From contig CBDCKW010000009.1 of assembly GCA_965218435.1 (NCBI GenBank), forward strand, positions 1,920,001 to 1,984,000: 64,000 bases of DNA, given 5' to 3'. Origin of the DNA: Truepera sp. (GTDB taxonomy: Bacteria > Deinococcota > Deinococci > Deinococcales > Trueperaceae). The position numbers and the translations under genes are program-made. The notes below the pieces were generated by a model. The model was not told the origin of the DNA and searched no databases. It saw only the letters and a program-made list of their open reading frames with translations. Numbering within the stretch: position 1 is the first letter of the stretch; each line of letters starts with the position of its first letter. Shown here one piece after another: positions 245-9,993 of the stretch.

Positions 245-631
245 TCAGCCGCCAAAAATAGCCGCCAAAGACCAACGCGCCGGACCCAATACCGTAAAAA
301 CTTGCTCGCCGTGCTCTCCGATACCGTACGCGACTTTGACGCGCTCACCTACGCTAAGGTGCTCAGTGGGTACTGCGGTGAGCGCCTTGACGACAGCGCC
401 GTCTTTAAGCTGCGCGACGATGATTTTGTTGGTTCCGTCTATATAGCCGATCTTCCCAGTCGTTTCACCCGTTTTCTGAACTTTATGGGTATGTGGCAAC
501 GCTTCAGCGACCCTTTGAACCACAGTTGTTGGCACGATGCCGAAACTGTGTGCAGGACGCAACTGCGCAAAACCTAACCAGACCAAGCCTGCTATACACA
601 GGACGAGCGCGGCAACGAGACTAAAGCGCAT
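245..631 (-). CDS. Hypothetical membrane-anchored/exported protein, last gene of the respiratory operon
   Basis: N-terminal hydrophobic helix followed by a small beta-rich domain; start overlaps the upstream stop (TAATG). Confidence 0.65.
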   Translation of the reverse strand: MRFSLVAALVLCIAGLVWLGFAQLRPAHSFGIVPTTVVQRVAEALPHTHKVQKTGETTGKIGYIDGTNKIIVAQLKDGAVVKALTAVPTEHLSVGERVKVAYGIGEHGEQVFTVLGPARWSLAAIFGG

Positions 632-1038
632 TATGGCGTAGCAGCGGTAACCTGAACAACGCCGATAGGCGTGTTGGTCTGCCGGTTGCTCGGGGCATTT
701 GACGTGTCGTAGCGGTCTTTGACAAAACGGCTGAGGTAAACGTAAGTTCCAGGAACTTCAAAGGTGTAGCTGTATGTTTCACCGGGGTAAAGGAGGCCGG
801 ACTCGAGCGCCGCCGCCCCGTCCGGCAGTTTGACGAGCGTCCCTTCATTTTTTGACTGTGGGTCCGCCGTTACGGTCTGCGGCGTCGTGCTGGTATTTTT
901 GAAGACCACAGTGGTTCCTGCGGTAATACTCAGGTTACCCGGCGTAAAGGGACGCTCGTCGCTGATTTCGACGCCGTAGCTCGTTCGTCCGGCACAGCCC
1001 GCCAGCAGCGCCAGTAACAGAAACAAGGTCGCTTTCAT
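631..1038 (-). CDS. Cupredoxin/plastocyanin-fold lipoprotein lacking type-1 copper ligands
   Basis: Lipobox LAGC; FTPGNLSITAGTTVVFKN and SGLLYPGETYSYTFEVPGTYVY are cupredoxin signatures. Confidence 0.8.
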   Translation of the reverse strand: MKATLFLLLALLAGCAGRTSYGVEISDERPFTPGNLSITAGTTVVFKNTSTTPQTVTADPQSKNEGTLVKLPDGAAALESGLLYPGETYSYTFEVPGTYVYLSRFVKDRYDTSNAPSNRQTNTPIGVVQVTAATP

Positions 1039-1046
1039 CCTTCCCC

Positions 1047-2909
1047 CTAGTCCAGCAGCTCGTTCGGACGGTTGAAATACTCGTCGCGCACTTTGTCACC
1101 GGCCATATACGCCAGCGCCAACAGCGTAGCAGTCGGGTTGGCACCGGGATTCTGCGGGTAGAGGGCCGCGCCTGTCACAAAGACGTTGGGCGTATCCCAC
1201 ACCTGCCCGTACTTGTTCGTCACTGAATTACCGGGGTCGGTCCCCATAATCGCGCCGCCCGTACAGTGCGTGGACTGATACTGATGCACGTTGTAAGGAT
1301 CGAGCGAGCCGGTAAAGTCGATGCGGTCAGGGTTCATCTCTTTGGCAATCTCATTGCAACGCTGAGCCAAAAACTTGTAGAGGTTCTTCTCATTTTCGTG
1401 AAAGTCGAAGGTCAGCCGCAGGAGCGGTTGGCCCCACGCGTCTTTATAGTTGGGGTCTAAGTCGAGATAGTTCTGTTTGTAGGCTTGCACTTCGCCCTGA
1501 ATTCCGACCCCGACGATGCCGTCCCAGTTGCGGCGCATGTTTTCTTTCCAGGCTTGGCCCCACTCGCTCCCCTGGTGGGCCAAACTGCCGACTTCGCTGC
1601 TGATCGTCGCGCCGCCCTGAACATCTTCGGCTTGTCCGCTGGGGCTTTCCGTTGCTGCCGGCGTCCCGGCCTTAAGAGACGGCATACTGATCACCGAAGT
1701 GAGCGGATCGTTCTGACCGCCGCCCGCGTAGATGGACGCCCCACCGATAAAGTTTTGCGCGGAATGGTCGAAGTTATCGGCGTTAAACTCATAGATCAGG
1801 TTTTGAATCACACCGTTGCCCATAAAGGTGTTGAAGCGCCGCCCTTCAAAAATGGCGTTGGCAGGCGTTTTAAGAATCTGGTAGGTATAGTTTTTCCCGA
1901 CCTTGCCTCGGTCGTTGCCGATCCCGTTAGGGTGGGCCTTACTTTTGGACAAGAGCAGCATCCGCACGTTGGTCAGCGTATAACCGGTGACCATCACCAC
2001 ATCGGCGGGTTGGACGTGCTCTTCGCCCGCCTCATCTATATAGGTGACGCCAGTCGCAAGGCCGTCCGCGCCGATGTTGATATGCAAGACCTTGCTGTTG
2101 GGGCGCACGTCCCAATTGCCGGTTTGCAAGGCGACCGGCACGTGCGAGGTCACGGCGCTCGTTTTGGCGTCTACTTCGCAGCCGAAACGGGTACAAAAGC
2201 CGCAGTAGATACAGCCCGAGCGGACGCGTCCCGAAAGGTCTTTATACGCTTCGGACAAAATGCCTGCAGGTTGCGGAAAGGGGTGGTAGCCCAGGTTGCG
2301 GCAGGCGTCGGCGAAGATTTGGGCGTGAACGCTGACCGGGTTGGGGGGTAACGGATAAGGACGTGAGCGCGGCGCTTCAAAGGGATTCCCGCCCGGAACC
2401 TTTTGCCCCGCCAGATTGCCCACCTGCCCGGCGGTACCGATATCGTAGTCTACGGTATCGTAGTAGGGCTCGAGCTCGTCATAGGTCAGCGGCCAATCTT
2501 GAACGGTCATGTTCGCTGGAATCTTATTTTTGCCGTAACGCGCTACGTTATGGCTGTAGTGCTGAAAGTCGGCGGGCAAAAAGCGCCAGAACTGCGCCGT
2601 CCAGTGAACGCTCGCCCCACCGAGGCCGTTTCCCGGCATAAACGACCCGAACTGCCGAATGGGTAACGCGGGCAAGCTGTCGTTGGGTCGCCAGCTCCAG
2701 GTTTCTTTCGCGAGGTCGAACATCATCGCTTTGCGGACGCGGTATCTGAGACCGTCGTGGTTATGGTTGTAGTCCGGGTTGGCCCAGCGCAAGGGGCCTT
2801 GTTCGATCGACACGACTTTGCGCCCCGCCGCCCCGAGTTTCCAGCCCATAATCGCCGCCGTCCATCCTGCGCCAATCGTTACCACGTCAACTTTTTTGTG
2901 TACTGCCAT
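1047..2909 (-). CDS. GMC oxidoreductase, gluconate 2-dehydrogenase flavoprotein (alpha) subunit-like
   Basis: IGAGWTA FAD motif, GNGLGGASVHW, CIYCGFC..FGC Cys cluster, STHCTGG, NPTAT. Confidence 0.9.
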   Translation of the reverse strand: MAVHKKVDVVTIGAGWTAAIMGWKLGAAGRKVVSIEQGPLRWANPDYNHNHDGLRYRVRKAMMFDLAKETWSWRPNDSLPALPIRQFGSFMPGNGLGGASVHWTAQFWRFLPADFQHYSHNVARYGKNKIPANMTVQDWPLTYDELEPYYDTVDYDIGTAGQVGNLAGQKVPGGNPFEAPRSRPYPLPPNPVSVHAQIFADACRNLGYHPFPQPAGILSEAYKDLSGRVRSGCIYCGFCTRFGCEVDAKTSAVTSHVPVALQTGNWDVRPNSKVLHINIGADGLATGVTYIDEAGEEHVQPADVVMVTGYTLTNVRMLLLSKSKAHPNGIGNDRGKVGKNYTYQILKTPANAIFEGRRFNTFMGNGVIQNLIYEFNADNFDHSAQNFIGGASIYAGGGQNDPLTSVISMPSLKAGTPAATESPSGQAEDVQGGATISSEVGSLAHQGSEWGQAWKENMRRNWDGIVGVGIQGEVQAYKQNYLDLDPNYKDAWGQPLLRLTFDFHENEKNLYKFLAQRCNEIAKEMNPDRIDFTGSLDPYNVHQYQSTHCTGGAIMGTDPGNSVTNKYGQVWDTPNVFVTGAALYPQNPGANPTATLLALAYMAGDKVRDEYFNRPNELLD

Positions 2910-2929
2910 CTTTCCCCCTTGGTTCGGAA

Positions 2930-2969
2930 AGAATACAGAATAAATGGGTAATTCTCTATTCTGTATTCT
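2930..2969. repeat. REP-like heptamer-based hairpin (related copies at 30902..30942 and 51637..51696; half copy at 27094..27122)
   Basis: AGAATACAGAATA/TATTCTGTATTCT perfect inverted repeat. Confidence 0.65.
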
Positions 2970-2990
2970 CTAGTCCTGCTAAATCTTTCT

Positions 2991-4034
2991 TTAGTTCGAA
3001 TGCTGCTGATCACGCCCCGACACCGGTAAGATAACCTCGCCGCTAGCCGGTTGCCCCGGATTAAAGTAGTTCAGGTCGGCGATCGCCTGCGGTTTTCGCG
3101 TCGTGCCTTCGGTCTGAATTTCACTCGGCAAATACGCGCGCTGTGCGCCGGGGTAACCCACCAATTTCCAACCGACCAGATCGCGGTTGCCGCCGTAAGC
3201 CGGGTCGGAAAACATCCCTTCGGTGGTGTGACGCCGGAGCGTGTGAAAAAAGCTTTCGGCGCTGAGTTCTTTGTCAAAGGTGGCGATTTTACCGCCCGCC
3301 ATGTCCCCGACGACGCCGTCTTGCTGCGCTTCGCTCAGGTTTGCGAAGTCTTTGCCGAACTGCGCGTTCGCGTAACGGTCGGTTGCCGCGACGCCGATAC
3401 GGTACACGTCTCGAGGGGTCAACATGGACTGGTAACCGTAGCGTTCAATCTGGTCGTGGGGCACCCACATCACTTTGTAGGGACCGTCCGTGTCGGCGGG
3501 TGGTTTATTCCCCGTATAGGTCCTGGCAAAGGGCGGTTCGCGGTAGGTCGGCTCGGGCAGCCCATCTTTGACATTTAAGAAGTTGTCAATGTAGGTGACG
3601 ACCCCCGCCTCCCTCGCGCCGGGGTCATCCGGGGTACCGGGCAAAATGCGAGCGGTCAGCGCCTCGACGGTGCGCGCCTCGTGTGGGGTAAAGACGCGCA
3701 GGATGTTCCGGGGCGGCGGCTCGGTCGGGGTATAGGGTACATCGGGGTACTGCTTGGCCGTCGGCACCTCAGCTGCGGGTAGCTCCCCAGACACGGCGAG
3801 TGGCTCGGCGGTGTCAACGCGCTCACACGCCTCGAGGCTGGCGGCCACCAAGGTTACCCCGGTTAATTTAAGGAAGTCGCGGCGTGAAGGCCCCTTCCGG
3901 CTTAGCTCAAGTTGGGTAGCCACCGGTTTAGCGGCCTTGTCGTTTTGTAGGCTATTTTTTTGTCTATCTTCGGGCACAGTGTCTTGGACGGTGTCTGGAA
4001 TGGCGTGCGCCGCTTTATGAGTACGTCTAAACAT
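2991..4034 (-). CDS. Gluconate 2-dehydrogenase subunit 3 (gamma)-like Tat protein
   Basis: SRRDFLK twin-arginine motif, PGAREAGVVTYID, EGMFSDPAYGGNRDLVGWKLVGYPG; ATG at 4034 follows GGAG. Confidence 0.88.
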   Translation of the reverse strand: MFRRTHKAAHAIPDTVQDTVPEDRQKNSLQNDKAAKPVATQLELSRKGPSRRDFLKLTGVTLVAASLEACERVDTAEPLAVSGELPAAEVPTAKQYPDVPYTPTEPPPRNILRVFTPHEARTVEALTARILPGTPDDPGAREAGVVTYIDNFLNVKDGLPEPTYREPPFARTYTGNKPPADTDGPYKVMWVPHDQIERYGYQSMLTPRDVYRIGVAATDRYANAQFGKDFANLSEAQQDGVVGDMAGGKIATFDKELSAESFFHTLRRHTTEGMFSDPAYGGNRDLVGWKLVGYPGAQRAYLPSEIQTEGTTRKPQAIADLNYFNPGQPASGEVILPVSGRDQQHSN

Positions 4035-4072
4035 CTTTTCTCCTGACTGGCGTAACCAGATCATTTCTGGGG

Positions 4073-4483
4073 CTACTGCAACGAATAGAAATAGGCGGCC
4101 ATATTCGCCGCGTCACTTCTGGTGACGCCCAGGTTCGGCATCGCGTTCCCAGGGTCAACCGCTTGGGGTACCTGAAGCCAGCGGATAAGATTGTCCGGGG
4201 TATTTGAAAGCCTACCGGCAATATACGCACGTTCAGCAAATTGCCCGTCGAGTTCGGGGCCGACCTGTCCTTTGACGTTGTCTATTCCCTGAATCGTGTG
4301 GCACGCGACGCAGCCGTAAGAGGCGAAAGCCGCTGACGCTTGCTCCGGGTCGCCCCCGACGACGGTGTGCGGCGGCGCTTTGGGAATATCGGTTCGCCCT
4401 GAAAGCTTCATGATGGCAATGAGGCCGACTAGCGCGACGATACCCACCAGCACGGTTGACAAAATGCGGTTTTCCCGTCTCAA
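4073..4483 (-). CDS. Membrane-anchored monoheme cytochrome c
   Basis: CVACH, GPEL, distal AMP Met; TTG start overlaps the ctaG stop and follows GAGGTG. Confidence 0.85.
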   Translation of the reverse strand: MRRENRILSTVLVGIVALVGLIAIMKLSGRTDIPKAPPHTVVGGDPEQASAAFASYGCVACHTIQGIDNVKGQVGPELDGQFAERAYIAGRLSNTPDNLIRWLQVPQAVDPGNAMPNLGVTRSDAANMAAYFYSLQ

Positions 4484-5376
4484 GGTCTCACCTCTTGAAC
4501 AGTTTGGGGCTGCGCGACTTGGGGCTGAGCTCTTGGTGCAAAAGCGTGTTGGCGTACCTGCATTCGCGCTTCGACGTCGCGCAGCCAAAGGAGAAAAAAT
4601 ATCCCGGCCAGCACTGTAAACAGAGTCCCCAGCGGCAACCACATCAGCAGGCCGGCGAGCTGTTGGTCACCTAACGCCGACCGGCCCAGCGCCTCGGTGG
4701 TTCTTGCATACGCGCCGTACCAGGGCGTCGGCGAAAAGGTGATCAGCGCCCCCAATGCGCCGCCCTGCAACGACGCGGCGAAGAGGTACAAAATCGCTGC
4801 GCCGCGCCCCAAACGCCGGTGACCGACAGGTTGGAGCAGCGTCCACCAAAAGAGCAATGAGGTGGCTAAAAAGGTGAGGTGCTCGAGCCCGTGCACCACG
4901 TTTGACCGCAGCGCGGCTTCGTAGAGTCCCGGTGTGTGCCAGACCCAAAACGTAGCCACGAACAGCGTCCAGGCGAGTACCGGGTTGGTCAGGGTATGAA
5001 CAACGTTTCTCAGAGCTTTTGCCCGTAACCAACCCTGCGCGACGGCTTTTCTCGCACTGGTAGGTAAAGCCCATAATCCGGCCACGACCGGCAAACTCAG
5101 CACCAGCAGCGGAGCCGCGACGATCATGATGAGCAGGTGCTGCACCATATGCGCGGAAAATAAGAGGCCGCTCAGCGCCTCGAGCGGCGAAATGAGCGCC
5201 ACCCCGAGAACTAAAAACGCACCGACACCGAGCAGCGCCCGCCACCGCTGAATGCCGCGCCCCACCCCGGCACGCCCCCAAAGCCTGAGCACGCCGCAGG
5301 TATAGAGCGCGAGCCCGAACAGCAAGCCGACGACGACAGCAGGCTCGAGCGTCCATAAACTCGTGACTCCTTTCAT
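4480..5376 (-). CDS. ctaG: Cytochrome c oxidase assembly factor, caa3-type CtaG
   Basis: FSAHMVQHLL, WHTPGLY, EHLTF and DQQLAGLLMW motifs. Confidence 0.9.
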   Translation of the reverse strand: MKGVTSLWTLEPAVVVGLLFGLALYTCGVLRLWGRAGVGRGIQRWRALLGVGAFLVLGVALISPLEALSGLLFSAHMVQHLLIMIVAAPLLVLSLPVVAGLWALPTSARKAVAQGWLRAKALRNVVHTLTNPVLAWTLFVATFWVWHTPGLYEAALRSNVVHGLEHLTFLATSLLFWWTLLQPVGHRRLGRGAAILYLFAASLQGGALGALITFSPTPWYGAYARTTEALGRSALGDQQLAGLLMWLPLGTLFTVLAGIFFLLWLRDVEARMQVRQHAFAPRAQPQVAQPQTVQEVRP

Positions 5377-5388
5377 TTCTCCCTCACC

Positions 5389-5814
5389 TCAGCGTATCCG
5401 GCACGGGTCTAAGAGCAGCATCGCTGCGCCCGTCGTCAAAATCAGAGCGAAGAAGGCGATACTCGTGACAAAACCGGCGTAGGTCATAAACGGGGTGACG
5501 CCTTCGTCGTGCCGACCGACCACCGCCGGGTCATCGCCCCGAGCCCTGCGCCAGTGCGTAAAACTGTTTACTCCGGCCCAGAGCGTCAATACAGTAGCGG
5601 CGAGTGAGATGATATAGAAGGGCAACCGTGAGCCGCCACAGACCGACGGCACGAACGCGTACCCGAGCAGCAGCTGCACCGCCCACGCCAAAGGACCGGC
5701 GAAAAAGCCGAACCAGAAGACGAAATAGTCTTTGGCCTCGTGGTAGCTGCCGCGGTAGTTAGCTTCACCGGCAGTGGCGGTTTGCCCGGTCTGTTTTTGT
5801 GTAGCCTGTTTCAC
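5389..5814 (-). CDS. Three-TM membrane protein, possible oxidase accessory subunit
   Basis: GPLAWAVQLLLGY..C; GTG start overlaps the subunit III stop. Confidence 0.65.
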   Translation of the reverse strand: MKQATQKQTGQTATAGEANYRGSYHEAKDYFVFWFGFFAGPLAWAVQLLLGYAFVPSVCGGSRLPFYIISLAATVLTLWAGVNSFTHWRRARGDDPAVVGRHDEGVTPFMTYAGFVTSIAFFALILTTGAAMLLLDPCRIR

Positions 5815-6476
5815 TACCGGGTCCCCAAAAAATGCGGCGACAAGTAGAGCGACGTCCAGACGAACAGCCACACGCCGTCTACAAAGTGCCAGTAGAGCGA
5901 GACATTTGAAAAACTCAGGTGGCGCTTGGGCGTAAAGTAGCCGAGCATAGCCCATAAGAGCATCACGCTCAGCAAGAGCACCCCGACCAACACGTGTAGC
6001 CCGTGCAACCCGGTAATGGTATAGAAGAGCGCCCCGTACGCGCCGTCTTGCGGCCTAAAATCAAGCTTGGTGTATTCATAAACTTGAATCCCTAAAAAGA
6101 CGACGCCGAGCAGGACGGTCAGCAGCAGACCCAGCTTGAAGTTACCCAGATGACCGCTTTTTAAGCGGCGCTCAGCCCAGATAAGAGCGGCGCTGCTCGA
6201 GACTAGGACGATCGTCGCCACCACCGGCAAGACAACCTCGGGCAGGTCTATCTCGTTAGGCGGCCAGACCGGGTTGTTCGAGCGCAAGTAAAAGTAACCG
6301 GACAAGAGGCAGGCGAAAAACACGGCTTCGGTCAGGATGAGAAGGGCGATCCCCCAACGGCTCGTTACCCGGCTACCCGACACCTGCGGCAGATCGAGGA
6401 GCGACTCACGGGAGATGTCGGCAAACGGGTTGGGTACCTGACCCAGTTGCCCTGCTTGATGATCCGTACCGCTCAC
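5814..6476 (-). CDS. ctaE: Cytochrome c oxidase subunit III
   Basis: ILTEAVFF, FYTITGLHGLHV, YWHFVDGVW. Confidence 0.92.
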   Translation of the reverse strand: MSGTDHQAGQLGQVPNPFADISRESLLDLPQVSGSRVTSRWGIALLILTEAVFFACLLSGYFYLRSNNPVWPPNEIDLPEVVLPVVATIVLVSSSAALIWAERRLKSGHLGNFKLGLLLTVLLGVVFLGIQVYEYTKLDFRPQDGAYGALFYTITGLHGLHVLVGVLLLSVMLLWAMLGYFTPKRHLSFSNVSLYWHFVDGVWLFVWTSLYLSPHFLGTR

Positions 6477-8416
6477 CTTTGCGCCTCCGCCCCTTCAAAC
6501 CTGTCCTGACGGCTGTTTTGCCGCGCGGCCTGCTGTTCACTGCGGTGCGGCCACAGCCACCACAGCGAAAAGACGAATACACCTGCCGCGCCGACACCGG
6601 TAAGCCACCACAGATGTAACAGCGTTCCCGCAAAAAAGACGAACATCGCGCCCGCGACGAAAAAGGGTGACGCGGATTCAGGTGGGATACGGATAATCTC
6701 TTCGGGCCGGGCTTCTAACAGGGTCGTGCCGATAGTTTCTCGTAAAAAGGGGTCGGTCGGGTCAACCTGGGCGGTGTCGGCACGCTGCGCTTCGGCCTCG
6801 ACATTACGGCGCTCCCAGAGCGGAGCCATGCTCGTGACCGGCGGGATGGTACGGAAGTTGTACGGCGGCGGCGGTGATGAAGTGGCCCACTCGAGCGTCG
6901 CCCCGTTCCAAGGGTTGTCCTCCGCGTCACCGCGTTTAGTCAGGCTCCAGTACACGTTGACGATAAAAAGAATCACGCCCGCCGCGATGGTGTACGCCCC
7001 AAGCGTCGAGATCAAATTGAGGTTACCCCAGCCCATTTCGGGCAGGTAGGTATAGATGCGGCGCGGCATCCCGAGCAGTCCCAACAGGTGCTGCACAAAA
7101 AAAGCGACGTTAAAGCCGACGAACATCAGCCAAAAGTTCCATTTGCCCAAGGTGTCGTTTAACATTTTGCCGGTTATTTTAGGAAACCAGTAGTAAAACG
7201 CGCCGAAGAGCGGAAACACCATCCCACCGACTAAGGTATAGTGAAAGTGCGCCACGATAAAGTAAGTGTCGGTCACCTGCCGGTCAAACGAGATCACCGG
7301 AAACATCACGCCCGTGACCCCGCCGATCACGAATAAGACGATAAACCCGGCGGCGAAGAGCAGCGGCGTTTTGAAGTTGGGATTCCCGCTTAAGATCGTC
7401 GCGATCCAGGCGAATACCTGAATGCCTGCAGGCAGCGCGATAATGACGCTCGCCGCTGCGAAAAATGAACCGGACAAGGGCGAGATGCCGGTCGCAAACA
7501 TGTGGTGCGCCCACACGCCGAAGCCGATCATGCCGGTTAAGACCGTCGACATAGCGACGAGGTTATAGGCGACCAGAGGACGACGTGAAAAGGTTTGGAT
7601 AATTTCCGATACGAAGCCGAACGCCGGTAAGACGATGATGTATACGTCCGGGTGACCGAACACCCAAAAGAGGTGCTGCCACAAGAGCGGCGAGCCGCCC
7701 CCGGCAGGGTCAAAAAACTTCAGGTCGAAGGTGCGCTCGAGCCACAAAAACACGTTGGCGGTGTTGAGCGCCGGAATCGCAAACAGCACCGCAAACGAGG
7801 TGACTAAAATAGACCAGCAGAAGATCGGGATGCGGTTGATGGACATCCCCGGCGCACGCATCCGGAAGATCGTCACGATGAAGTTGATCGCGCCCGCCGT
7901 GGTTGCAAAGCCTAAAAAGAGGAGCCCTAAGACGTAGTAGTCGATCCCGAGTCCCGGCGTGTACTTGCTGGTGGTGTAGGGCACGTAAGCAAACCAGCCG
8001 CCGTTCGGTACGCGGCCGACTAAGAGGCTCGAGTAGATAAACCCGGCAGAAAACAGATAGACCCAGTAGCCAAAGGCGTTCAGCCGCGGAAACGCCATAT
8101 CGCGCGCACCGATTAAAAGCGGGACCAAAAAGTTGCCGAAACCGAACAAGATCGGCGTGGCGAAGAAAAAAATCATCATGGTGCCGTGCATGGTAAAGTA
8201 CTCGTTATATGACGCCGGGCTTAAAAAGCTGTTGCCGGGTCTGATAAGCTGCGTACGGATCATCATGGCGTCGGTACCGGCGAGCAAAAAGACCGCGAAC
8301 GCCGTAACGATGTAACGAATCCCGATGGTTTTATGGTCAACGGTTGTCAACCAGCCGAAGAGCCCGCCGCCCTCCCAGATACTTTTTAATTCCCGACTCG
8401 GCAGTGACTGAGCCAT
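6473..8416 (-). CDS. ctaD: Heme-copper oxidase subunit I (A-family-like, atypical proton-channel residues)
   Basis: TVDHK, TMHGT, RDMAFPRLN, GHPDVY, WAHHMF, AHFHY, GMPRR. Confidence 0.95.
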   Translation of the reverse strand: MAQSLPSRELKSIWEGGGLFGWLTTVDHKTIGIRYIVTAFAVFLLAGTDAMMIRTQLIRPGNSFLSPASYNEYFTMHGTMMIFFFATPILFGFGNFLVPLLIGARDMAFPRLNAFGYWVYLFSAGFIYSSLLVGRVPNGGWFAYVPYTTSKYTPGLGIDYYVLGLLFLGFATTAGAINFIVTIFRMRAPGMSINRIPIFCWSILVTSFAVLFAIPALNTANVFLWLERTFDLKFFDPAGGGSPLLWQHLFWVFGHPDVYIIVLPAFGFVSEIIQTFSRRPLVAYNLVAMSTVLTGMIGFGVWAHHMFATGISPLSGSFFAAASVIIALPAGIQVFAWIATILSGNPNFKTPLLFAAGFIVLFVIGGVTGVMFPVISFDRQVTDTYFIVAHFHYTLVGGMVFPLFGAFYYWFPKITGKMLNDTLGKWNFWLMFVGFNVAFFVQHLLGLLGMPRRIYTYLPEMGWGNLNLISTLGAYTIAAGVILFIVNVYWSLTKRGDAEDNPWNGATLEWATSSPPPPYNFRTIPPVTSMAPLWERRNVEAEAQRADTAQVDPTDPFLRETIGTTLLEARPEEIIRIPPESASPFFVAGAMFVFFAGTLLHLWWLTGVGAAGVFVFSLWWLWPHRSEQQAARQNSRQDRFEGAEAQR

Positions 8417-8426
8417 CTTATCCCCT

Positions 8427-9431
8427 TTACTCGAGCGTCTTTAGGTACGCTAAAAGCGCCTGTAAATCGTGTGATTCTAAATACATAGGCGGCATCTTGT
8501 TCCCTGGTTTGACCGTCTGCGGATTGACGATCCACCCGGCTAAATTGCCTTCAGTATTCGGGAGCGCCCCCGCGCCGATGGTGCGGCGGCTCGCGAGGTG
8601 CGTCAAGTCAGGACCCAGACGGCTCGAGGCGTTCGTACCTTTAATCGCGTGGCAGTACACGCACGCCGACCCTAAAAAGACCTGTTGCCCCCGCAACGCT
8701 TCGCCGCCTTTGGGAACAGGCGCGGCGAGTTGCTGCTGTGAGACCCACGCCTGATACTTTTGGGGCGCGTCGGCCACTACCCAAAACGCCATCTTCGCGT
8801 GCTGTAAGCCGCAGTATTCACCGCACTGCCCGCGAAACGCACCCGGCTGGTCGGCCTCTATAGAGATGGTATTGGTCTGCCCCGGGATCGTATCGATTTT
8901 GCCGTTCAGCTCCGGTACCCAAAACGAGTGAATCACATCGGCCGAAGTCACTTTGATCTGCACAGGTTCCCCCGCCGGGATATGCAGTTCGTTGGCCGTG
9001 GTAATGCCCTCTTGCGGATAGATGACCTCCCACCACCAGCGGTGACCGATCACCTGGATGACGCGCGTCGGAGCCTGAGCGCGAGCGGTGATCACGTTTT
9101 CCGTATAGATGTTAAAACCCATCAGCGTGCCTAACACGGCAATGGGAAAGGCGGCCCCCAAAAGCCCCACAAACCACAGCAGCCCCCGCTCTCGGTCCGA
9201 ATGCAGTTGTGGGTCAGTTGATGCGTCTCGGCGTTTTCTAAAAAGTGCGACGAGGAGCAGCACTGTAACTAACACCACGACAAAACTGGCGACCGAAAAA
9301 AGGACCCACCACCAGGTATCTATATACCTGCTGATCGGTCCCTGAGGATTAAGGGCGGACTGCGTGCGGGCAGCGCAGGTGCTGGCCAAAGCGCCGACAC
9401 TAACAGCTAAGCCGACGTTTAGGCGCTTCAC
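8427..9431 (-). CDS. ctaC: Cytochrome c oxidase subunit II with fused cytochrome c (caa3-type)
   Basis: CuA ligands DVIHSFW and CGEYCGLQHAKM; C-terminal CVYCH...KMP. Confidence 0.93.
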   Translation of the reverse strand: MKRLNVGLAVSVGALASTCAARTQSALNPQGPISRYIDTWWWVLFSVASFVVVLVTVLLLVALFRKRRDASTDPQLHSDRERGLLWFVGLLGAAFPIAVLGTLMGFNIYTENVITARAQAPTRVIQVIGHRWWWEVIYPQEGITTANELHIPAGEPVQIKVTSADVIHSFWVPELNGKIDTIPGQTNTISIEADQPGAFRGQCGEYCGLQHAKMAFWVVADAPQKYQAWVSQQQLAAPVPKGGEALRGQQVFLGSACVYCHAIKGTNASSRLGPDLTHLASRRTIGAGALPNTEGNLAGWIVNPQTVKPGNKMPPMYLESHDLQALLAYLKTLE

Positions 9432-9993
9432 CGCCCGTCCTGTCTAGGTAACCCTCGAGCCGGTGGGCTCACAGCTCCGTCCCGGAAAATAGACCCGGTT
9501 TTACGGGCAGCCAACTTTTAGAACGGATCTTGCTAAGACAATCAGCACAACTTTTACTTATTATGTGTACTGCAGCTACTTGGTTGATCACTTTACACCT
9601 CAGCGGCGTCATTAAATGCCGTACAGCTATGTAGTTCGTCGCACCTCGAGACGAGCGGCTGACTGGGTCAGTTGGCAGCGTAGCAAGACAGACAAAAGTG
9701 CTCACAACGCAAAAGCAAGCACCGCGTTGTCGGCACCTTGACGATATTCATTTGCCACCCCCAAATAAAGTGTTGCAAATTCAGCGTGTGCTGAAGCTCC
9801 TATTATGCGAACGCTTTGGCCGGGATGTCAACACCGTAGTTGTTGGATGAGGAGGGTAAAGCTGTCCCTAGACACGACCTTAGTGCGCGTGCTAAAGCGG
9901 AGATACGCGGACAAAAATCCAGCTATCTGGCAGATAGCGGCAGAGCGAAAAAGGCTAGAAGTCCGAAGATGAGTTGTTAAGTTACCAGTTCGT

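Follow-up and report, generated by a model that had tools for sequence, protein, structure and literature searches.

A caa3-type oxidase of Truepera sp. without the K-channel lysine belongs to a conserved clade of A-family oxidases

The oxidase locus and subunit I

The window analyzed here is a 64,000-nucleotide stretch of DNA from Truepera sp. (assembly GCA_965218435.1, contig CBDCKW010000009.1, positions 1,920,001 to 1,984,000). Its minus strand carries the genes of a caa3-type heme-copper oxidase in which subunit I has a glutamine at the position of the K-channel lysine and subunit II lacks the glutamate at the channel entrance. The two catalytic subunits and the positions in subunit I that concern us most are the following.

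6473..8416, minus strand: subunit I, 647 residues, with 12 core helices and a two-helix C-terminal extension; ligands of heme a and of heme a3/CuB and the active-site Tyr intact (TIGR02891 above cut-off)
7418..7420, minus strand: Gln333 at the K362 position, codon CAG (read from codon and alignment)
7427..7429, minus strand: Ala330 at the T359 position (read from sequence and mapping)
7646..7648, minus strand: Asp257 at the E286 position, in HPDVY (read from sequence and mapping)
7754..7756, minus strand: Asn221 at the O2-channel lining position I242 of Paracoccus denitrificans, I250 of Rhodobacter sphaeroides (mapping; Asn in 89% of the Asp286 branch)
8156..8158, minus strand: Thr87 at I104 of P. 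denitrificans, I112 of R. sphaeroides (mapping; Thr in 122 of 122 Asp286 branch members)
8427..9431, minus strand: subunit II, 334 residues, with a CuA site and a fused C-terminal cytochrome c (TIGR02866 above cut-off)

Residues were mapped in two steps, from the window subunit I to its homolog at locus L235 and from there to P. denitrificans (PDB 1AR1). The mapping pairs Q333 with K354, A330 with T351, A336 with S357, S270 with S291, and D257 with E278 of the P. denitrificans chain. Unless stated otherwise, we use R. sphaeroides numbers, which we take to be the P. denitrificans numbers plus 8. The labels K362, E286, and B-E101 in PMC8239185 agree with this offset.

The original prediction, made from the DNA letters alone, described an enzyme with an intact O2 site and no recognizable K channel, and the residues are where it placed them. 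In window subunit I numbers, the six heme and CuB histidines (H77, H255, H304/H305, and H390/H392), the tyrosine expected to form the cross-link (Y259), the D-channel entry (D106 in RDMAFPRLN), and the PRR motif at 451–453 are all retained. The predicted substitutions K362 to Gln and T359 to Ala are borne out by the CAG codon at 7420..7418, by alanine at residue 330, by the mapping to 1AR1, and by a gap-free alignment of helix VIII with CtaD of Mycobacterium smegmatis, in which Q lies opposite K. Moreover, S365 is replaced by Ala. The original prediction was right about the D-channel entry and overlooked a change at its top: D132, N121, N139, and N207 are present, whereas E286 is replaced by Asp. 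The window thus has GHPDVY where A1 oxidases are defined by the Glu of GHPEVY, and the YS motif of A2-type enzymes is absent from its subunit I.

A model of subunit I built from a 102-sequence alignment shows the A-family fold with a predicted local distance difference test score (pLDDT) of 89.6; a single-sequence fold (pLDDT 44.9) was discarded as unusable. In Foldseek searches, the model superposes on the R. sphaeroides and P. denitrificans chains with root-mean-square deviations of 1.4–1.9 Å, and the caa3 oxidase of Thermus thermophilus (PDB 2YEV) is the closest fold.

Subunit II

In subunit II, Gly89 (codon 9167..9165) occupies the column of the K-entry Glu of Lys-bearing enzymes, confirming that helix II lacks the glutamate of ExxWT, and Gly92 replaces the Trp of the same motif. 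The loss of the two residues in the two subunits goes together. Among 110 loci from the genome search, 103 could be read at this position, and the Glu is found in 55 of 55 Lys-bearing and in none of 48 lysine-less enzymes. With metagenome loci added, the helix is covered in 141 of 177 sequences, for 5 of which the state of the Lys cannot be read. In this set, all 50 Lys-bearing enzymes have the Glu and none of the 86 lysine-less ones does, so that the co-conservation suggested in the original prediction is observed. All counts in this work come from related sequences and reflect the signature of a clade, with one or few underlying events.

In 97% of the lysine-less subunit II sequences, Gly takes the place of the ExxWT Trp. 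The original prediction named a Lys or Glu at compensating positions as grounds for refuting it; in helix II of subunit II, we found no Asp or Glu within 10 residues of the Pro in any of the 86 lysine-less enzymes.

Co-variation of channel residues across homologs

The best 120 of 8000 scored homologs contain no Lys at position 362, where Gln (95 sequences), Ala (18), Ser (6), and Gly (1) are found. At position 286, the same 120 sequences have Asp (95) or Trp (25). The metal ligands, Y288, D132, N139, N207, and R481/R482 are conserved in all 120, and N121 in 119. Since these homologs are also devoid of the Lys, and since P0001, a homolog with 95% identity, has the same residues, chance or an assembly error is ruled out as the origin of the substitutions.

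The genome search gave 110 loci, 58 with Lys362 and 52 without. In addition, metagenomes were scanned with the E286D motif alone, independently of helix VIII, which returned at least 120 loci. Gln362 is present in 108 of these (106 by pattern and 2 by eye), 11 are truncated or frameshifted, and one has Lys. The latter, L233, is the sole E286D locus with Lys362 among the matches listed and has a helix VIII similar to the one in actinobacterial CtaD.

The Asp286 branch (n = 122) has D132, N139, N207, T112, and Q362 in 100% of its sequences, N121 and Y33 in 99%, and N250 in 89%. At the two positions close to the D channel's upper end, the Lys-bearing sequences (n = 58) have Met at 112 (100%) and Leu at 250 (91%). 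We take I112 to be a neighbor of E286, and I250 lines an O2 channel that ends near E286 (PMC4256069). Asp286 is accompanied by Thr or Ser at window position 87 or by Glu at window position 169 in 156 of 156 sequences.

Along the K-channel positions, the Asp286 branch has Ala in place of T359 in 38% and in place of S365 in 84% of its members, retains S299 in 98%, and has E300 in 65%. Helix VII has gained Thr at two window positions: 291 (54%), which is mostly Gly in Lys-bearing sequences, and 294 (80%), which is always Ile in them. The helix VII set of C-family enzymes (S, S, H, Y) was sought in the Asp286 branch, which has A, V, S, and G instead. A column scan revealed no new conserved acid on the periplasmic side.

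Phylogeny and selection

For the large tree, nine diagnostic columns were removed from the alignment, 291 of 356 sequences passed the coverage filter, and the root was placed on the A2 paralog. All 232 lysine-less sequences form one clade (Shimodaira–Hasegawa-like support 0.94). An IQ-TREE analysis of 46 sequences, including proteobacterial A1 and A2 enzymes, likewise groups 24 of 24 lysine-less sequences (approximate likelihood-ratio test, 90.2) and nests them among the Lys-bearing A1 oxidases. A two-sequence cbb3 outgroup recovers the same split; its very long branch (3.95) attaches within the lysine-less sequences, which would place the root there. As the cbb3 root is not trusted, the direction of change, a loss of the Lys, rests on the A2 rooting. 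On these trees, which were built without the published lysine-less sequences (the 2TM lineage, CyoCAB, Elusimicrobia, and the Ferrigenium straubiae COX), the clade likely descends from within the Lys-bearing A1 oxidases.

The branch of the window keeps the classical lower D channel. In the second main branch (n = 57), to which the rhizobial proteins belong, the D channel has been rebuilt, and Glu occupies window positions 169 (100%) and 178 (95%). Trp286 arose once, inside an Asp286-dominated branch (support 0.999), and Gln362 afterwards decayed to Ala, Ser, Gly, or Thr. The Trp286 branch (L112, L114, L032–L035, L058, L059, L062, and L064) gains Tyr85, Ser94, and Thr205. A repeated alternation between Glu and Asp at 286 is confined to the lysine-less clade.

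The nearest DNA relatives of the window gene are only 63–66% identical, with synonymous sites near saturation, and selection was therefore estimated from non-overlapping close pairs of relatives. The median ratio of nonsynonymous to synonymous substitution rates (dN/dS, Nei–Gojobori method, NG86) is 0.102 for lysine-less pairs (n = 29), 0.105 for their Asp286 members (n = 14), and 0.089 for Lys-bearing pairs (n = 18). Judged from these sequence comparisons, the lysine-less clade is under purifying selection and is not decaying. The relaxed selection that the original prediction had considered is not seen, and its proposal of a distinct, conserved subfamily agrees with the single clade. The genomes of the loci L005 (G251) and L089 (G332) are unpublished. 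Both loci contribute to the subunit I counts, the trees, one dN/dS pair, and the tally of 47 genomes given below, and no conclusion hinges on them.

Operon and electron-donor partners

From the oxidase genes to a 128-residue open reading frame (ORF), the genes are tightly packed and all on the minus strand. Apart from subunits I and II, the region contains the following features.

9802..9831, minus strand: sigma-70-like promoter match (11 of 12 positions, 18-nucleotide spacer) about 370 nucleotides upstream of subunit II; only suggestive, as 3 sites are found against 3.7 expected in shuffled sequences
5814..6476, minus strand: subunit III, short form, its start overlapping the stop of subunit I
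5389..5814, minus strand: small membrane protein without a Pfam or NCBIfam family, recurring after subunit III in lysine-less operons
4480..5376, minus strand: copper assembly factor Caa3_CtaG
4073..4483, minus strand: monoheme cytochrome c with a membrane anchor, sharing 36% identity with the subunit II cytochrome domain
2991..4064, minus strand: protein resembling subunit 3 of gluconate 2-dehydrogenase, with a twin-arginine motif and an uncertain start codon
1047..2909, minus strand: large subunit of a GMC flavoprotein dehydrogenase with a cysteine cluster
631..1038, minus strand: cupredoxin-fold lipoprotein, His/Cys ligands of type-1 copper apparently gone (ligand loss judged by eye)
245..631, minus strand: 128-residue ORF without a family, at the end of the same-strand run

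The small membrane protein encoded at 5389..5814 has no match in Pfam or NCBIfam, and its matches in the Atlas are unnamed clusters only. It is a probable accessory subunit of the oxidase. A COX4_pro cluster is present in 28 of 37 Lys-bearing loci and in 0 of 61 lysine-less loci, and for this reason the small protein may be a replacement of subunit IV.

Among loci of 9 kb or more, a PQQ (pyrroloquinoline quinone), GMC, or Rieske/cytochrome b donor is encoded in 33 of 61 without the Lys and in 1 of 37 with it, counts that are biased by how the locus samples were gathered. PQQ dehydrogenases account for 17 of the 61 lysine-less loci; the partner in the window is the GMC flavoprotein. Gene context thus suggests that lysine-less oxidases are often wired to an electron donor of their own, which here would be a flavin dehydrogenase together with a cytochrome c.

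Flavin dehydrogenases of the gluconate-dehydrogenase type usually have a triheme subunit. The two-subunit dehydrogenase of the window (1047–4483) is without one and adjoins the gene of the monoheme cytochrome c. Similar cassettes occur in L040, L049, L051, L175, and L183, and in L049 and L089 the GMC gene is likewise followed by the cupredoxin-fold lipoprotein. A gene for a small c-type cytochrome (G000:C9:1919469-1919891) lies immediately to the left of the window, on the opposite strand and convergent with the end of the operon.

Host genome

The host genome is 100% complete and has three subunit I genes, all of A-type heme-copper enzymes. The other two oxidases, one A1 and one A2, keep both the Lys and the subunit II Glu. 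Whole-genome searches found no bd oxidase and no monofunctional catalase in the host, which encodes a two-domain heme peroxidase (KatG-like) and two Mn catalases.

Five further genomes of the same genus, two of them fragmented, were searched. All nine subunit I matches at E <= 1e-100 have the Lys; the lysine-less oxidase was not found in 5 of 5 genomes, and the GMC protein of the window, used as query, finds no match in them. The GC content at third codon positions is 0.74 in the oxidase cassette and 0.73 in the host paralogs. With the two values practically equal, the cassette, although patchy in its distribution, shows no sign of recent arrival.

A PF00115 search covered 47 genomes, representing as many of the 52 lysine-less loci, and gave two or more matches in 46; the remaining genome is a fragmented assembly. 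Of 20 partner regions chosen for inspection, 15 (in 14 genomes) encode A-type enzymes, all with the Lys, 4 encode cbb3 oxidases, and 1 could not be parsed. The lysine-less oxidase is an accessory enzyme.

Proton pathways and alternative explanations

We give about even chances to the interpretation that the enzyme is an accessory, A1-derived caa3-type O2 reductase that takes all its substrate protons through a remodeled D pathway, with proton pumping probably reduced. Electrons would pass from the exported flavin dehydrogenase to the membrane cytochrome c, then to the cytochrome c domain and CuA of subunit II, and from there through heme a to heme a3/CuB. The K pathway would be closed, with the Lys, the hydroxyls of T359 and S365, and the entry acid of subunit II all gone, and the four substrate protons would all enter by the intact lower D pathway. 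At the top of this pathway, the shorter Asp286 together with the polar Thr112 and Asn250 would probably admit extra water towards the binuclear center. In canonical enzymes, the K pathway delivers two of the eight protons, during the reductive steps (PMC8239185, PMC7196763). The yeast E243D variant retains coupling at 46% turnover (PMC7196763). Glu-to-Asp at this site is thus compatible with turnover in yeast, and the absence of pumping does not follow from E286D alone.

The original prediction had left three mechanisms side by side. Operation through the D channel alone is the one that we favor; the non-pumping enzyme does not follow from E286D by itself, and peroxide reduction fares poorly, as discussed below. 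The prediction also supposed that the family is widespread and little characterized. It is indeed widespread; its novelty is limited, as the joint loss has been published for other lineages of the A family and the operon type has been described as a-II.

Several observations weigh against the preferred interpretation. Canonical K-channel mutants lose most of their activity, and the D pathway does not substitute for the missing route (PMC8239185, PMC7196763). The literature searched contained no activity data for any member of the clade. The strict conservation of Gln362, with S299 kept in 98% of the branch, would be needless in a channel that had simply been abandoned. A sister branch (n = 46) combines Trp286 with the absence of the Lys and still keeps D132, N139, and N207, while in the branch with the rebuilt D channel (57 sequences) D132 is replaced by Asn in 9%. 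Because of the Trp286 sister branch and the rebuilt-D branch, Glu or Asp at 286 appears to be dispensable in the clade, and a third proton route is conceivable.

These points bear differently on the other explanations. The main competitor is a lysine-free, polar K-like pathway, formed by E300/S299, Q362, the Thr residues of helix VII, and Y288, which would operate as in B-type enzymes and leave the oxidase an ordinary two-channel pump. The invariance of Gln362, the retention of S299, and the Thr gains at 291 and 294 speak for it, and Table S7 of PMC8239418 credits a K channel to a ba3 oxidase in which Thr replaces the Lys. That ba3 entry, however, keeps an entry acid (PMC8239418), which none of the 86 lysine-less subunit II sequences has. 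In the window enzyme, T359 and S365 are both replaced by Ala, as they are in 38% and 84% of the branch, respectively; E300 is variable, and the C-family helix VII set is not reproduced. We regard this pathway as unlikely, albeit a serious contender. A lower probability still attaches to a non-canonical, possibly periplasmic proton route in a weakly electrogenic or non-electrogenic enzyme that serves its partner dehydrogenase as an electron sink. The 46 conserved Trp286 sequences, which lack both canonical terminal residues, speak in its favor, as do the Glu/Asp alternation restricted to the lysine-less clade and the accessory status in 46 of 47 genomes. However, the cytoplasmic D-channel entry is 98–100% conserved in the Asp and Trp branches alike, and the periplasmic side offers no new conserved acid.

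Decay to a non-catalytic copy, or conversion to a nitric oxide (NO) reductase, is very improbable. The gene is redundant beside two canonical host oxidases and was not found in the five genomes of the same genus; yet the reading frames are open, relatives are under purifying selection, the ligands and CuA are kept, and the operon has a dedicated CtaG. NO reductases have the active-site Tyr replaced, whereas here it is retained, also in 120 of the best 120 homologs, with no Glu at that site. We consider a role mainly as an H2O2 reductase, bypassing the K-dependent reductive phase, the most remote of the explanations. K362 mutants can turn over with H2O2, the flavoprotein of the operon belongs to a family that includes H2O2-forming oxidases, and no monofunctional catalase was found in the host. 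Against this, the KatG-like enzyme and the two Mn catalases would duplicate the role, and the partners elsewhere are PQQ dehydrogenases or bc-type complexes, which are not sources of peroxide. Moreover, the rate constant for H2O2 binding to T. thermophilus caa3 oxidase is 1540 M-1 s-1 (PMC8509429), which by our arithmetic amounts to about 0.015 per second at 10 µM.

Returning to entry of all substrate protons by the D pathway, we tentatively extend it, with somewhat less than even confidence, to the lineage as a whole. A large group of A-family oxidases would reduce O2 fully, including the reductive half-cycle, through a single D-type pathway; the loss of K362 would have come first and released the constraint on E286, which could then change to Asp, together with Thr112 and Asn250, and afterwards to Trp. 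If true, this single-D lineage would mirror the B and C families, which have a K-type pathway only, and the K channel would not be mechanistically required. The need for two proton pathways, and the failure of the D pathway in the reductive steps, have been studied mostly with crippled point mutants. The clade offers natural, selected enzymes without K362 and without E101 of subunit II, with an apparent series of Glu, Asp, and Trp at position 286. Its members in culturable and harmless hosts such as Sinorhizobium, Rhizobium, and Azospirillum make a direct test of one-route operation possible. On the annotation side, energy conservation may be overestimated for many accessory 'ctaD' genes that are linked to methanol, sugar, or bc-type donor modules.

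Relation to known oxidases

The window enzyme shares with canonical A1 oxidases (P. denitrificans 1AR1, R. sphaeroides 1M56, M. smegmatis CtaD, and T. thermophilus 2YEV) the fold, the heme and CuB ligands, the Tyr, and CuA, as well as D132/N121/N139/N207, R481/R482, and W172. It differs from them by K362Q, T359A, S365A, and E286D, by the missing subunit II Glu, and by polar residues at I112 and I250.

Lysine-less oxidases of the A family in general are already published, as is the a-II operon type. Many of the former, often without the subunit II Glu, are catalogued in PMC8239418, and joint loss of the two residues has been described in other lineages (10.1101/2020.03.01.968255, 10.64898/2026.01.22.701106). 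Like the window enzyme, the published cases (the 2TM lineage of Acidithiobacillus, Thioclava, and Chloroflexi; CyoCAB; Elusimicrobia; the Ferrigenium straubiae COX) have lost the Lys and often the Glu and largely keep the D channel. The lysine-less oxidases tabulated in PMC8239418 have a hydrophobic residue or Thr at the Lys position and in no tabulated case Gln, in contrast to the window. According to the same source, the 2TM lineage keeps T351, has lost S291 (P. denitrificans numbers), and mostly has two extra N-terminal helices. The window has Gln at the Lys position, Ala at T351, a conserved S291, and no extra helices, and does not belong there.

Subtype a-II is defined by a C-terminally extended subunit I and a subunit II fused to cytochrome c, with extra mono- or diheme cytochromes and with PQQ partners that are frequent and not obligate (Degli Esposti et al. 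2014, PMC4013037); the COX operon subtypes are restated in PMC6431628. The window matches this description in a subunit I of 647 residues (range 630–670) with a C-terminal two-helix extension, in the cytochrome c fused to subunit II, in the extra cytochrome c, and in the linked dehydrogenase (PMC4013037). It differs in having a GMC flavoprotein instead of a PQQ enzyme as its partner and, compared with the rhizobial a-II proteins and their rebuilt D channel, in combining the classical lower D channel with Asp286. The homologs from Sinorhizobium medicae WSM419 and Rhizobium leguminosarum WSM1325 have Gln at K362 and fall in the same clade as the window. An Azospirillum Az39 protein, whose C-terminal stretch matches the printed a-II exemplar, has Gln362 and Asn132; the exemplar-like Azospirillum protein, outside the tree itself, is 70% identical to L111, which groups with L113 and the window. 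Based on the definition and the printed exemplar stretch in PMC4013037, the lysine-less clade appears to include or correspond to subtype a-II. Some a-II proteins of the rebuilt branch (L259:4917-6866, L107, L111, and L113) lose or alter the D132 motif and gain two buried Glu residues.

Table S1 of PMC8239418, which dates from 2021, scores 'subtype a & a-II' with K-channel 'yes', an entry that, for a-II, is not borne out by the sequences examined here. Oxidases with the Lys-to-Gln replacement, HPDVY, or HPWVY were not evident in the literature searched, which lay mostly outside subscription journals and a 2020 review in Biochimica et Biophysica Acta (Degli Esposti). As far as our searches go, the presence of Gln362 in a-II and a coupling between E286D and T112/N250 are new. 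We count XoxF3-linked oxidases with a-II; their operons include Cox genes, with a small protein located between CoxIII and CtaG (PMC10875860). Reports on the physiology of accessory oxidases (PMC11742914, PMC5492768, PMC4274787) were considered and set aside, as the parts available give no sequence tie to the lysine-less clade.

The C-terminal helices of subunit I (residues 583–599 and 603–621; window 6473–6700) superpose on subunit I of Escherichia coli bo3 oxidase, as part of about 620 aligned columns, and on the I+III fusion of Thermus, as part of about 610. In bo3 subunit I, the extra C-terminal helices presumably correspond to the first helices of subunit III. In the model, the two extra helices of the window protein may likewise represent the beginning of subunit III; for a-II, a fused COX4 has been proposed instead. 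At the other end of the chain, all but one of the 52 lysine-less loci carry Trp14 and Arg34; the Lys-bearing loci have Leu or Met at 34, and neither residue is their consensus.

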